From assembly GCA_964016885.1 (NCBI GenBank), contig CAXHJY010001187.1:60077-124076 (forward strand): a stretch of DNA of 64,000 bases. Direction: 5' to 3'. Under the pieces are notes generated by a model that had not been told where the DNA came from, made no database searches, and saw nothing but the letters and a program-made list of their open reading frames with translations. Positions 26,887-61,717 of the stretch are shown piece after piece. Position 1 is the stretch's first letter; the number at the start of each line of letters is the position of its first letter. Both the position numbers and the translations under genes were made by a program. This stretch comes from Eledone cirrhosa. Lineage: Eukaryota.

Positions 26887-27301
26887 AAGTATGTATACTG
26901 ACATACATATATGTGTACAGACTCACAGTAGTATGTATATATATATATACATACATGCACACATATATATGTACATATGGGTTTACCGAACATTTATTAT
27001 AATGTTCGTTTTGTTTGTAAACAAACAGCCCGAATTACACTGTACAGTGCTCGGCAACCACCGTCGCTCAACACTGACACAGGAATGATGTACTAGTTTC
27101 AAGCTTATTAGCTATCGTCAGCATCGTATACCTTTCTGTCAGATGATTGAACGTAATTCGAGCTGTTTGTTTACAAACAAAACGAACATTATAATAAATG
27201 TTCGGTAAACCCATACGTGCTATATATATGTGTGCATGTATGTATATATATACATACTACTGTGAGTCTGTACACATATATGTATGTACGTATACATACT
27301 T
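26887..27301. repeat. Foldback element: ~150-bp inverted arms with a 114-bp spacer
   Basis: 26887-27038 is the near-perfect reverse complement of 27153-27301. Confidence 0.92.
27087..27125 (-). ncRNA. Minimal type I hammerhead ribozyme motif
   Basis: Minus strand GATG-CTGACGA-T-AGCT-AATA-AGCT-T-GAAA-CTAG-TA-CATC: intact core, stems I and II, palindromic stem III, GUA triplet. Confidence 0.85.
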
Positions 27302-27473
27302 TATATATATATATATATATATTAAAATAACAGATTAAAGTTTAAGCAAAGAATCGCTGCTTTCACCCTTAACGGGATCTTCTGAAACTAAAAAATCAAT
27401 CTGTGAACGCAGAAGTAAATATTTTGAAAAATGTTACACACTATGTATATATATATATATATATATATACATA

Positions 27474-30400
27474 GATAATAGACGTAAATAGAGTGAACGA
27501 CAGAATAATTAAAATACGACTTGTCCTCAATAGAACTACGGTGACAGTAATATCTGCGTACGCACCCCAATCCAGACTGCCCGGCACTATAAAAGACAGA
27601 TTCTATGAGACACTGATGCTAACTACCTCCCAAATATCCGACAGTGACTATATAATTATTGCAGGCGACCTAAATGGTCACGTTGGACAACATTGTGACG
27701 GCTACGACGAAATCCATGGAGGCTATGGGTTTGGTACTAGAAATGAGGAAGGCTCCAGAATCCTGGAATTCTGTGATGCAAATAACCTAACTATCTGTAA
27801 CACTAACTTCAAAAAACGTGACAATCACCTGATCACCTATAGATCCGGGGAACACACAAGCCAGGTAGATTATATCCTTACCAGAAGACGTGACAGAGTG
27901 TCTGTTGTAAACACTAAATCCCTCCCCCATGAAGAATGCACCTCCCAACATAGACTGATAATTAGCGACCTCATAATCAGGACGAGACGTACTCGACAGC
28001 AGAAGAGGACTATCCTCAGGAGAAAAATATGGAAGCTAAAGGACCCCACAGCCAAAAATAAATTTCAAAGCATATTACTTGATGCTTTCGACAGTAAGGA
28101 AGAACATTTAGAGTCGGACAATATAGAGGGAGAGTGGGAATTTCTGAAAGCAAACCTGCTGTTGGCGACAGACGAAGTCTGTGGCTGGAGCAGGCCTGTA
28201 GGCAGGAGGAGAGTAACATGGTGGTGGAACAGTAAGGTGGAGGGGTCAATTAAGGCCAAAAAGCAGGCTTGGAAAGTATGGCAGGATGGGGGAAGTAGAG
28301 AAGACTATCAAGTGGCCAGGAGGGAAGCTAGGAGACAAGTGTACTTAGCAAGAAGCTGAGGAAAGAAAGTTCAAGCATGTTCTACAACGCGATGACCAAA
28401 AACGTGAGGTGTTCAGGATTGCTAGGCAATGCGTCAAGGAAAACCGTGATATTGTCGGGGAGAAGTGTGTACTAAACGACGATGGCACACTTGCCATCAC
28501 TGACGCTGATAAGAAGGTAGCTTGGAAGTGTCACTATGAAAGGCTACTAAATGAGGAGAATAAATGGGAGAAAGACAGTCTCCCCCATATCGACCCAATA
28601 GAGGGACCAGCAGTGTTAGTCGAGGGGAGTATAATAAGTAAGGCAATCAAGGATATGAAGTCGGGTAAGGCGGCTGGGCCTTCGGAAATAGTTGCTGAGA
28701 TGCTGAAGGCATCTGGCACGGTGGGACACACCATGGTCACCCGCATAGTTAACCAAGTCGTACAGAATGGGGTTGTTCCGAAGGACTGGCATAGCAGCAT
28801 CATCGTTAACTGTTATAAGGGTAAAGGAGACGCTCTAGATAGGAGTAACTATAGAGGCATTAAATTAATCGACCAGGTCATGAAGGTCACGGAAAAAGTA
28901 ATAGCACAACTAATCAGAGAGAGAATTGACCTAGATGAAATGCAGTTCGGGTTTGTGTCAGGCAAAAGTACCACAGACGCTCTTTTCATTGTACGACAAC
29001 TACAGGAGAAGTACCTAGCTAAAGGTAAACCCCTCTACTTAGCTTTTGTCGACTTGGAGAAAGCCTTCGACAGAGTCCCCCGCTCCATTATCTGGTGGGC
29101 TCTTAGAAAACTAGGCGTTGACGAATGGCTTGTGAGAGCTATACAAGCCATGTATAAAGAAACAGTCAGCAAGGTTAGAATTAACAACGAATATAGTGAA
29201 GAGTTTAGCGTAAAAGTTGGCGTCCATCAGGGCTCTGTTCTCAGCCCCCTACTATTTATTATTGCCCTTCAGGCTATAACAGAGGAGTTCAAGACCGGCT
29301 GCCCATGGGAACTCCTATACGCAGACGACCTGACACTCATAGCGGAATCAATGGCCGAGCTAGAGAAGAAATTCCAAACATGGAAGCACGGCCTAGAATC
29401 AAAAGGCCTTAAAATTAACCTGGCTAAGAGTAAAGTTCTAGTTTGTAGAAAAGAAAATAAGGCGGCGGTCCCTTCTGGGAAATGGTCGTGCTCGGTGTGT
29501 AGGAAAGGCGTAGGTAGAAACTCCATTTTATGTCCTAAATGCAAAGTATGGGTGCATAAAAGATGTAGTGGGATCACAGGTAAGCTAACTAAGAACATAG
29601 ATTTTACATGTGGCCGGTGCTCTGGTGCAATAAGTAGCAGCAAGTGCCCACAAAATACTAGCTCTTTCAATTGCGCAGAGGGTTCTATAGAAATAGTGGA
29701 CAGTTTCCGTTACCTGGGTGATAAAATCAGCAGTGGGGGAGGGTGCTCTGAAAGTACAGTAGCTAGAGTCAGAACTGGTTGGAAAAAGTTCAGAGAGCTT
29801 ATACCACTATTAGCTGCTAAAGGGTTCTCCCTAAAAATGAAAGGCAGGTTGTACGATGCCTGCATACGAACAGCAATGTTGCATGGCAGTGAGACCTGGG
29901 CATTGTGTGCAGAGGATATACGCAGACTAGAGAGGAACGAAGCTTGCATGCTCCGCTGGATGTGTAACAGTAATATACGTGAACGGCAAAGCATAAACAA
30001 ACTAAGGAAAAAATTAGAAATAAGAGGGATCAGATGTTGTTTACTCGAGAGAAGGCTACGTTGGTATGGACACGTGATGCGCATGAAAGTCGATAGCTGT
30101 ATAACAAAGTGCAGGGCAATAAAGATAGACGGTAGCCACGGAATAGGCAGACCTAGAAAAACCTGGGACGAGCTGATAAACTCCGACCTCACACACTTAC
30201 ACCTCTCCAAGACAATGTCACTGGACCGAGACCTTTGGCGGTACTCAGTAACAGAGAAGACCCGCCTTACCTAAATACATAGTAAAACCTACTACAGCCA
30301 GTAGGCATCTCTAACAAAATAACCCCCCCCCCCCCCACACCCCCACCACCCCCACCCCATCCACGCCACCCCCCACCCCCACCACCCCCACCCCATCCAC

Positions 30401-30715
30401 GCCACCCCGTTCTATGTAAAGTTGTATTGGTGCCACACCATCCAGGCCGAAACAAATGAGATCGTGTAGGTGTCACGACAAAAAAACACACAGTCCACGC
30501 TGTAATGTGGCCGTGTAGGCAACACGGTAAAAACCTCCCAGACCCACACTGTAAATGTGGTTGGTGTTAGGAAGGGCATCCAACTGTAGAAAACCTGCCA
30601 GACAGTCCTATGCGAGCAAGACAATCACTCTTGCCTCAAGTGGGACTACCCCCGTCCAAACCCATGCAAGCGTGGAACACGGACGTTAAACGTTGATGAT
30701 GATGATGATGATGAT
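27474..30715 (+). mobile_element. RTE-clade LINE, 5'-truncated within APE; APE + RT + PHD finger; single frameshift at ~28357
   Basis: APE motifs YAPQ, GDLNGH, VDYIL, SQHR. RT motifs DLEKAFD, QGSVLSP, YADD. ~440-bp 3'UTR ending in (GAT)n. Inserted in (TA)n. Confidence 0.97.
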
Positions 30716-31249
30716 ATATATATATATATATATATATATATATACACACACACATACTATATATACACCGAGGAGATGACGAAGGACCGTGACAAGTGGA
30801 GAGATGCTGTGCTGAATAGGACCCGGCCAACCTTTGCAAGCAGGGAAAAGCGGACATAAAATGATGATGATGATACACACACATATAACGTCATAATGAC
30901 GTAATGCAGACAGTCAGGCATACAGACATGTTATAAGGGTGCAACGTTATATCTATGTATCTATCTAAAAAGAAAGAATAAGAATTATAGAGAGAGAGAT
31001 CACTAAATCGCCTAATACGGTCCCTAGGGCATTGAAAATTTGAAATTTTTTTCTCACAGGACCATAAGTATTACATGTGTAAAGTTTGAAAACAATCGGT
31101 TGGGTGGTTCTCGAGTTTAGGGAGTCAGACAGACAGACATTCTCTGTTTTAGATATATAGATAAACAAGTAAAGAGTTTTGTATCATAGGACCAAAGGCA
31201 GTTTCATATAATAAAGGTTAAATTGTTATATTCCATTGAATATGATGAA

Positions 31250-60590: not shown

Positions 60591-60900
60591 AAATATATAT
60601 ATATATATATATATATATATATATATATATATAGAGAGAGAGAGAGGGTCGGAGTAGATATTTACATGCATTCGCATTTCCATGTGTGCGTGTGTGTGTA
60701 TGTGTGTGTGCGTGCATGTGCGTGCGTGTGTGTGTGACGAACTCTCATGTCGCGAACGACATATACATATATACATACAAATATACACACACATATATAT
60801 ATGTAGAAGTTATATTTAATTTGTTGGGATTCCAACAAACTTAAATGTTTATAACTGATATAGAGCATTCAACAGTTTACTGGAGTAAATATTCAATATA

Positions 60901-61240
60901 TTAATAAATGGAAACTATATTTATAAAACCATAATTATTTTATTATATATATTTCAAGGGCGACCAAGCCAATCTTGCGCGCTTTCATCAGATAAAATAC
61001 AAAATTTGTTTTATAAATAGTGACATAACCATGGGAAACAACCTTGACGGTTGAAAATTCTCTGGATAGACTATCAAGCGAATTTTCAACCGTCAAGGTT
61101 GTTTTCCATGGTTATGTCACTATTTATAAAACAAATTTTGTATTTTATCTGATGAAAGCGCACCAAGATTGGCTTGGTCGCCCTTGAAATATATATAATA
61201 AAATAATTATGGTTTTATAAATATAGTTTCCATTTATTAA
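60901..61240. repeat. Foldback element: ~160-bp arms, 19-nt loop, a hammerhead in each arm
   Basis: 60901-61060 versus 61080-61240 differ at only a few positions. Confidence 0.95.
61141..61205 (+). ncRNA. Hammerhead ribozyme motif (mirror copy on minus strand at 60936-60999)
   Basis: TATTTTAT-CTGATGA-[AAGCGC ACCAAG ATTGG CTTGGT CGCCCTT]-GAAA-TATATA-TA-ATAAAATA: 8-bp stem I, long stem II, palindromic stem III. Confidence 0.82.
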
Positions 61241-61367
61241 CACACACACACGCACACACACACACACACACACACACACACACACACACACACACACACA
61301 CACACACACACACACACACACACACACACACACACACACACACACACACACACACACACACACACAT

Positions 61368-61717
61368 ATATATTAATAAAAGGAATTCCAACTTTGTCTG
61401 ATTTACTCGTTTTATTTACAATCCTTTAAAATTACAATGATATTATAATGAAATATTATGGTAGAATATTAAACGTTAAATGTTAATTGAACAAGTACTT
61501 TCATGCTTTTCGCAATCTTCAGGTTCATATTCAGTGGTGACAGTCAAGTTTGTAATTTTCTCAACTGACAGTTGAAAATTGCAAACTTGACTTGTTCAAT
61601 TAACATTTAACATTTAATATTCTACCATAATATTTCATTATAATGTCATTGTAATTTTAAAGGATTGTAAATAAAACGAGTAAATCAGACAAAGTTAGAA
61701 TTCCTTTTATTAATATA
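61368..61717. repeat. Foldback element: ~130-bp arms; spacer holds a hammerhead and a nested hairpin
   Basis: 61368-61496 versus 61588-61717. Inner hairpin at 61542-61592. Confidence 0.93.
61488..61527 (-). ncRNA. Minimal hammerhead ribozyme motif
   Basis: TGAAC-CTGAAGA-T-TGC-GAAAA-GCA-T-GAAA-GTAC-TT-GTTCA. Confidence 0.8.

Follow-up and report, generated by a model that had tools for sequence, protein, structure and literature searches.

In this study, we analysed a 64-kb stretch of DNA (the window) for which a sequence-only reading had proposed short foldback elements carrying minimal hammerhead ribozymes. By repeat analysis of the window, the three long inverted repeats of that reading, A (26887-27301), B (60901-61240) and C (61368-61717), were all recovered, with arm identities of 142/152, 165/170 and 122/125 alignment columns, respectively, and of 31/34 for a smaller palindrome, D. 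Both strands were scanned for hammerheads, defined by a CUGANGA and GAAA core, stems I, II and III and a UH cut site. Six motifs, of the minimal type I, were detected at five loci: at −27121 (spacer of A), −60991 and +61149 (B, one per arm), −61522 (spacer of C), +50100 (D) and −55218 (E). The features are:

26830..26886, minus strand: extension of A, 57 nt, one side only, tail-like (putative tail)
26887..27301, minus strand: element A; hammerhead-bearing sense copy starts at ~27152, inverted truncated copy (27153-27301) at its 5′ end
27084..27128, minus strand: hammerhead of A, type I, U-U closure of stem II, palindromic stem III; predicted cut after 27091; E-value 5.2e-6
49912..50021, no strand assigned: D palindrome, mostly microsatellite, without hammerhead
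50093..50134, plus strand: solo hammerhead-like motif D, extra nucleotide after A9, non-palindromic stem III; E-value 0.15
55166..55225, minus strand: solo hammerhead E, between microsatellites, without inverted copy; E-value 1.3e-6
58432..60579, minus strand: decayed Penelope-like ORF in three frames with Hydra-clade motifs, adjoining B; tblastn matches 58453-60576
60811..60900, minus strand: 3′ tail of the B family, ~90 nt, left arm only, from contigs of public runs
60901..61240, no strand assigned: element B, near-perfect head-to-head palindrome, centre 61070; member of a high-copy repeat family
60937..60998, minus strand: hammerhead of B, left arm; predicted cut after 60944; E-value 0.0032
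61142..61204, plus strand: hammerhead of B, right arm; predicted cut after 61197; E-value 0.0035
61368..61717, minus strand: element C, palindrome, centre 61568; motif in left arm only
61486..61529, minus strand: hammerhead of C, type I, U-U closure, palindromic stem III; predicted cut after 61493; E-value 1.2e-6
61718..61747, plus strand: extension of C, 30 nt, one side only, tail-like (putative tail)

As a null, 200 block-wise dinucleotide shuffles were scanned; they held 0.025 motifs on average, any motif occurred in 4/200, and a motif with palindromic stem III in 0/200. In the window, a strictly palindromic stem III, previously noted for most cases, is indeed present in four of the six motifs (A, both of B, and C). 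Stem III self-duplexes are predicted at −3.2 to −4.8 kcal/mol for A, B and C, −8.2 for E and +3.8 for D; a self-complementary stem III permitting a predicted dimer is found in A, B and C but not in D. The long inverted repeats take up 1.7% of the window but contain three of the five motif loci (post hoc binomial P 5e-5), so that hammerheads are enriched in inverted repeats, as expected from the earlier reading, within this window. Per element there is one hammerhead motif per strand. Rfam returned 78 and 31 matches, none of them to a hammerhead family; they were to miRNAs, driven by hairpins and scoring under the gathering cut-off. Weak shuffle z-scores, −2.04 for E and between −0.95 and +0.20 for A-D, were obtained for the isolated motifs, as is expected of minimal hammerheads; they add nothing. 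Motif E (55218) had not been noticed before, and no inverted repeat is present there.

The view that every element contains or adjoins a hammerhead held for A, B and C, each with a motif in the scan (0.025 per shuffle), but had to be given up for the palindrome at 49912-50021, which had been counted as a fourth, smaller foldback. It holds no motif and consists mostly of (TC)n/(TA)n/(AG)n, each arm having ~18 unique nucleotides. The core at 50100 lies 79 nt beyond its end, and the stem III there (AGGU) is not palindromic; with the motif outside the repeat, D was rejected as a foldback. Its motif is followed by ~88 nt and then by (CA)n.

Elements A, B and C have one layout: an inverted 5′-truncated copy is joined head-to-head at the 5′ end, the 3′ ends face outward, and each element has a one-sided extension. 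The solo motifs D and E are without such a copy. A is inserted into the (TA)n of a repeat that also occurs, uninterrupted and without the extension 26830-26886, at 4582-4750 and 9543-9699, indicating a microsatellite target; the outer arm of A (26887-26975) is itself a degenerate microsatellite. The right arm of C is without 48 nt, the hammerhead up to the cut site, leaving a motif in the left arm only. The described (TA)n/(CA)n setting was confirmed as a microsatellite context, except that each long element is flanked on one side by 30-90 nt of unique sequence before the microsatellite resumes. No similarity among A, B and C was detected at BLAST level, and tblastn with 163 PLE-type proteins (PLE, Penelope-like element) matched only 58453-60576 in the window; dissimilar and non-coding, as reported earlier, are thus apt descriptions of the three. 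Close to their centres, B and C have a 15-nt motif in common, but its p of ~0.013 comes from one of 60 comparisons and is not significant, and kinship of the two via this 15-mer was dropped. Neither head-to-tail tandem arrays of A, B or C units nor the direct tandem units with at least two hammerheads per strand that characterise retrozymes are found for A-C in the window.

The ORF at 58432-60579 has the RWK, CxCx5C, CxxC and CxH motifs and the length below 3 kb given as Hydra-clade criteria in PMC8557442 (section 11), with DKI where DKT is expected; Pfam assigned 0 families to its three frames and to a fragment at 2753-3148. Its 3′ UTR contains no canonical hammerhead in the descriptor scan. 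It has no match to A, B or C either, and for want of such a match B was ruled out as the upstream pseudo-LTR of this ORF. As a reference set, we used 80 Hydra-type ORF loci from metagenomes; among 105 pattern matches in viral contigs there was no Hydra-type ORF. At the nucleotide level, A, B and C matched neither the neighbouring PLE nor these 80 foreign loci. Within 700 nt after the ORF match, the 80 loci gave 42 descriptor hits, versus 5 on the whole reverse strands, and 33 of the 47 loci with at least 300 nt downstream carry a motif. The commonest closure of stem II is U-U (19/42, near-duplicate loci included), while A-U occurs in 4/42. An RNA model was built from 28 of the 42 motifs, leaving out seven near-duplicates, one with N and six with long stem II. 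It scored C, E and A at E-values of 1e-6 to 5e-6 and B weakly (0.003). The hammerheads of A and C are hence of the type found 3′ of Hydra ORFs, with the proviso that U-U closure may not be confined to this clade, while stem III (ATATATAT) and the A-U closure of B are atypical of the set. In the coding copy at locus L043, a 185-nt inverted copy with hammerhead is joined head-to-head to a truncated ORF, with an extension on one side only.

For B, further copies were available as contigs from public runs, which were placed on B with an identity cut-off of 85%. The family is high-copy: 6148 contigs from run X1 match B. Summed contig depth, which is not copy number, amounts to 1.3-1.9 million at the 3′ end versus ~900-1060 at 61042-61073; this ~1000-fold fall, to ~0.1% at the centre, may partly reflect subfamily divergence below the cut-off. 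A sharp step lies 10-40 nt upstream of the core, where depths of 687,000 and 312,000 drop to 38,000. Two classes of 3′ end were observed, copies ending either near 60890-60898 or just past 61235 and then running into (TA)n, and 60811-60900 proved to be B-family sequence present on one side only. Stem II varies in sequence among copies with its hairpin kept. No read-out upstream of the centre was seen among the 24 of 468 loose ends listed, and an exact search of metagenome contigs for the 3′ pattern of the family gave 0 matches.

Checking the inversion points across copies, as had been suggested, showed them to be variable: at least 14 head-to-head joints, beginning at 11 different positions between −79 and +59 as counted from the core, were found among the 15 of 33 and 12 of 31 rows listed in the joint tables. 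This lower bound leaves out two same-arm skips, two go-back rows and three opposite-strand rows. Each joint is represented by one contig, 13 in X1 at depth 8-39 and one in X5 at depth 77, and 7 of the 14 are symmetric within 5 nt; the placement of short joints (side 21-36 nt) near 61208-61214 may be wrong, as the sequence there is AT-rich and self-complementary. A common centre with common arm boundaries is thus not what the B family displays, and from the ~1000-fold depth fall and the scattered joints it follows that its fold-back was likely made at insertion and not inherited as a fixed unit. Three joints nevertheless touch the centre (61066, 61069, 61070), and 22 contigs have a common variant at 61076, suggesting that this point may be a preferred 5′ end. 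Since a copy with the same centre would align to the window without a joint, the joint table is blind to such copies, and a minority of the family may have one common centre.

Folding of whole-element RNAs predicted a cost of adopting the hammerhead fold of 90-92 kcal/mol for B, 8.2 for C and 1.4 for A; the hammerhead of A occupies the rod's loop, where it should fold cheaply. Stem I had a pairing probability of 0.0 in both B and C, as did stem II in B. The hammerhead of B is thus predicted to be sequestered in the full foldback RNA, which, together with the single hammerhead per strand, argues against a retrozyme cycle.

Taken together, A, B and C most likely form the extreme short end of ordinary PLE insertions, each a 3′-end stub with an inverted truncated copy, likely built at insertion into a microsatellite; the parents probably belong to the Hydra clade. 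Of the two possibilities raised by the sequence-only reading, truncated PLE insertions with fold-back are favoured by the PLE-type hammerheads, one-sided tails, microsatellite targets and, in the B family, variable inversion points. In such an insertion, a PLE RT/GIY-YIG protein would nick (TA)n-type DNA, and reverse transcription would begin at either of two 3′ sites, one including the tail and one not, and halt 0-150 nt from the hammerhead. The new strand would then likely fold back on a small local hairpin and be copied back, yielding the head-to-head palindrome. Internal re-priming or later deletion would account for arms of different length (A) or segments left out (C). The hammerhead would likely be a passenger of the parent's 3′ UTR, driving no cycle of its own in the fold-back.

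The parents could also have been short (~200-260 nt), ORF-less, hammerhead-bearing PLE parasites, SINE-like or retrozyme monomers, with the fold-back still made at insertion by a borrowed PLE protein. The great abundance of the B family, the abrupt fall in its depth 10-40 nt upstream of the core and the three joints at its centre speak for such parents, as do the centre-to-tail length of ~260 nt, inside the 170-400 nt of retrozymes (PMC7229834), and the lack of an ORF link for A-C in window BLAST and tblastn. We nonetheless regard them as unlikely, given that A and C have hammerheads like those behind Hydra ORFs, that the window holds no head-to-tail array of A-C units, and that strong 5′ truncation is normal in PLEs (PMC8557442). 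A more daring but doubtful version is that the B family, perhaps with A and C, has no coding parent at all: a very high-copy ORF-less hammerhead SINE of ~260 nt, whose natural 5′ terminus would be the hairpin at 61070, would hijack Hydra-clade Penelope proteins and land as monomers or self-primed palindromes, not as tandem retrozyme arrays, and some palindromes that have their ribozyme in the loop, as A does, might be re-copied whole.

Transcription of a whole palindrome, its processing by the hammerhead and re-insertion as a unit, the fixed 'foldback retrozyme' of the sequence-only reading, is very improbable and finds no support in B. The cheap fold in the rod loop of A (1.4 kcal/mol) would suit it, and so would the summed depth near 1000 at the centre of B, where same-centre copies are invisible as joints; against this, the centre has ~0.1% of the 3′-end depth, the joints listed (at least 14) are scattered, a single hammerhead on each strand is not enough to cut out a unit-length RNA, and in the whole-element RNA neither stem I (B and C) nor stem II (B) is predicted to pair. 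The long terminal inverted arms, TA-rich targets and missing coding capacity could recall MITE-like DNA transposons or post-insertion inverted duplications that include PLE 3′ ends by chance. This can hardly be maintained: the B family has a polar depth profile, centres that vary and a tail confined to one side, the arms are the hammerhead's own 3′ flank, and L043 has the same layout attached to a coding PLE.

If truncated PLE insertions are the correct reading, PLE stubs can pass for MITE-like palindromes in invertebrate genomes rich in microsatellites, and repeat libraries may mislabel them. The B family offers a natural data set, in which thousands of very short copies map the start and stop of reverse transcription and the joining of the inverted arm, steps given as unsettled in PMC8557442 and PMC11167929. 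If it is ORF-less, it adds a non-tandem kind of PLE parasite.

Among known systems, animal non-LTR retrozymes (PMC7229834; Li et al., bioRxiv 10.64898/2026.07.22.740005) resemble A-C in being short and non-coding, with a type I hammerhead and proposed PLE origin and mobilisation. They differ as direct tandem arrays with at least two hammerheads on one strand and circular RNA, whereas A-C are inverted, have one per strand and are known from DNA alone. A literature search covering few subscription papers found none on fixed foldback hammerhead families. In Schistosoma mansoni, dual minimal hammerheads on opposite strands, 100-700 bp apart, were taken as truncated PLEs (Cervera and de la Pena 2014, PMC4209133); B likewise has two opposite-strand motifs, 158 nt apart. 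In the available part of that paper, these pairs are not presented as palindromes and their inversion points are unmapped, unlike here; PMC4209133 describes, for other PLE hammerheads, the extra nucleotide after A9 found in D. The Hydra-clade hammerheads of PMC8557442 (section 11, File S2) share with A and C the type I fold with U-U closure of stem II, a short self-complementary stem III and a position within ~200 nt of the 3′ end. The stem III pattern of E equals, by eye, that listed for Hydra-1_oBim, while B departs in its long stem II, A-U closure and (AT)4 stem III. In overall architecture, A-C correspond to EN+ PLE insertions, for which Craig et al. (2021, PMC8557442) reported an inverted 5′-truncated copy, an optional one-sided tail and microsatellite bias, with hammerheads on both strands in Penelope-13_HM, and Arkhipova et al. 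(2013, PMC3846280) palindromes at head-to-head junctions, interpreted as self-priming. Common to both are the head-to-head inverted copy at the 5′ end, the junction palindrome, the one-end extension, the microsatellite target and the hammerhead near the 3′ end. A-C differ in being without any ORF remnant, and the extensions of A (57 nt) and B (90 nt) exceed the 30-40 bp published for EN+ PLE tails. The fold-back arrangement itself is already described for Penelope-like elements.

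The sequence-only reading had proposed three long inverted repeats, and all of them were recovered in the window with arm identities of 93-98% (A 142/152, B 165/170, and C 122/125 columns). For the detection of hammerheads, we used a descriptor comprising the core boxes, a stem I of at least 4 bp, a stem II of at least 3 bp, and a UH site. Five loci of the window matched it, with a total of 6 type I hammerhead motifs, while the chance level was 0.025 motifs (mean of 200 block shuffles) and no palindromic stem III was seen in motifs of these shuffles. The inverted repeats and motifs are real and well above chance. 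With Rfam models, none of the window's hammerhead motifs was detected. The elements are also non-coding, as had been supposed: 163 PLE-type (Penelope-like element) proteins matched the window only at 58453-60576.

Hammerhead motifs of the three inverted-repeat elements and an additional solo locus
26887-27301, inverted repeat A: one motif, within the spacer
60901-61240, inverted repeat B: two motifs, one per arm
61368-61717, inverted repeat C: one motif, within the spacer
55166-55225, minus strand, E (motif at 55218): solo hammerhead, absent from the list of the sequence-only reading

A fourth foldback, the small palindrome at 49912-50021 (D), could not be upheld. This palindrome is mostly microsatellite and does not include the motif at 50100, which is 79 nt away; therefore, D is a solo motif. 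E is the best-formed solo hammerhead of the window, located 30 nt from (TA)n and without an inverted copy.

The hammerhead-sense strand points outward in A, B, and C, and the arms are therefore arranged head-to-head. B is a full palindrome with a 5-bp hairpin at 61070 as its center. C is a B-like palindrome centered at 61568, the right arm of which lacks 48 nt, i.e. the hammerhead up to the cut site. In A, the sense copy begins at about 27152, where the extended stem I has its 5′ edge; its inverted counterpart starts about 42 nt beyond the cut site. Unique sequence is one-sided, with 57 nt on the left in A, about 90 nt on the left in B, and 30 nt on the right in C. A is located in (TA)n of a repeat whose two other copies in the window are uninterrupted, and no target-site duplication was readable in the microsatellites. 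A 15-nt motif near the centers is common to B (61045-61059) and C (61566-61580) with 1 mismatch, which is not significant after multiple tests.

Parts of the B query (60770-61240) were present in six public sequencing runs from three studies, four of which were aligned to it at 85% likeness. In one run, 6148 contigs aligned on the query. There, the summed depth, which is not copy number, was 1.3-1.9 million around the 3′ end, dropped from 312,000 at 61122-61137 to 38,000 at 61106-61121, and was 900-1060 at 61042-61073. The B flank at 60811-60900 belongs to the family sequence. Other B copies end near 60890-60898 or just beyond 61235, followed by (TA)n. Thus, the B family has two classes of 3′ end, a tail signature tied to two reverse-transcription start sites in PMC11167929. 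Among the rows listed (15 of 33 in one table, 12 of 31 in another), 14 joints, i.e. head-to-head junctions of left and right arm in other B copies, were found, each as a single contig. Counted from the hammerhead core, the longer copy in these begins at 11 different points between -79 and +59. Symmetry holds to within 5 nt in 7 of the 14, and in some the two copies are separated by a small hairpin. Against a simple reading, three listed joints touch the B center and 22 contigs carry a common variant 6 nt from it; moreover, copies centered like B would give no joint, so the joint count would miss them. Of 468 loose contig ends, the 24 listed showed no sequence continuing upstream of the B center. 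Side observations were an approximately 8- to 18-fold depth step just upstream of the hammerhead (61122-61153), 6 of the 14 listed joints in which the sense copy begins 8-36 nt ahead of the core, and the A sense start likewise at the stem I edge; the 5′ edge of the ribozyme may be a preferred starting point for copies.

A decayed PLE ORF is located 320 nt from B and carries the motifs RWK, CxCx5C, CxxC, and CxH, which are marks of the Hydra clade according to section 11 of PMC8557442. As a parent of A, B, or C it was rejected, its 3′ UTR being unmatched to all three and without a canonical hammerhead. The 3′ end of this element (58150-58204, minus strand) has a strong hairpin structure (z -2.24), likewise without a canonical hammerhead, and a solo copy of it occurs at 63271-63323 (plus strand) just before (TA)n.

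With relatives of the endonuclease of this ORF, 435 metagenome loci were found, the best 80 of which were used for comparison. Directly downstream of the ORF match, 42 descriptor matches were obtained in 34.6 kb, whereas the reverse strands (225 kb) yielded 5; at least one hammerhead occurred in 33 of the 47 loci having at least 300 nt downstream, and U-U closure of stem II, as in A and C, in 19 of the 42 motifs, all these counts including near-duplicate loci. This closure also predominates in File S2 of PMC8557442. A covariance model trained on 28 of the 42 motifs had 89% of cells paired and 106 double changes, equaled by 0 of 500 shuffles. Searching the window, it ranked C, E, and A at the top (E-values of 1.2e-6, 1.3e-6, and 5.2e-6); the two motifs of B followed at 0.003 and D at 0.15. 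Given that these E-values are only approximate and that one descriptor selected both the training and the window motifs, the match shows the kind of hammerhead, not descent. Inverted repeats were found in 7 of the best 80 loci, and in one coding locus (L043) an inverted copy of 185 nt that includes the hammerhead is joined head-to-head onto a truncated ORF. Another coding Hydra-type locus (L056) carries, beyond the element's 3′ end, a 92-nt inverted copy of the ORF-proximal 3′ UTR (repeat pair 1220-1311 and 1481-1572), so that the hammerhead is enclosed by the pair; it lies at a contig end and may therefore be an assembly effect.

Further features were noted in the window. The host repeat interrupted by A holds a hammerhead-like motif of its own (27337-27391, 4646-4700, and 9599-9653, minus strand), which shows U-U closure and has a long stem III. 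Core U4 is changed to A in two copies (model E 0.024), the third copy is more decayed, and a natural core variant or a dead family is possible. A degenerate hammerhead-like motif is present at 63695-63753 (plus strand; model E 1.0). A LINE that is nearly intact and includes AP endonuclease, RT, and a PHD-like finger begins directly past the right flank of A (27475-30274, plus strand), and older inverted LINE fragments are located at 170-701, 7271-8102, 19801-19997, and 25665-25952. A short frame at 2753-3148 (minus strand) resembles by eye a C-terminal PLE RT piece of another clade, with no Pfam or tblastn support, and 62413-62962 is a tandem array with units of about 91-93 nt.

Folding was predicted for whole-element transcripts. 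The hammerhead fold would be kept only in A (cost 1.4 kcal/mol), while C would lose stem I (8.2 kcal/mol) and both motifs of B would be locked in a rod (90-92 kcal/mol, stem pairing 0.0). The B motifs cannot dimerize within one RNA because they are on opposite strands. Unit-length RNA, the excision of which is required by the retrozyme cycle (10.64898/2026.07.22.740005), cannot be excised with one motif per strand. A, B, and C, for which sequence, motif type, and polarity, and in B also the tail and variable joints, were observed, are probably PLE insertions of very short length and known layout; that their parents were ORF-less parasites appears unlikely. For such insertions, a PLE protein would nick microsatellite DNA, reverse transcription would initiate at either of two 3′ sites, and early stop of copying as well as fold-back copying at a local hairpin would give the observed forms. 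Junction palindromes were read as self-priming on an antisense template in PMC3846280; the present data would fit either template. For asymmetric joints, the joining of two cDNAs may be an alternative compatible with the data.

In a literature search, fixed families of foldback hammerheads were not described in any paper retrieved, and the A, B, and C families themselves may be uncatalogued. The neighboring ORF is alike by eye to Hydra-1_Obim of PMC8557442, and the same source already describes inverted 5′-truncated copies, one-sided tails, and a microsatellite bias, while dual minimal hammerheads on opposite strands are already described in PMC4209133.
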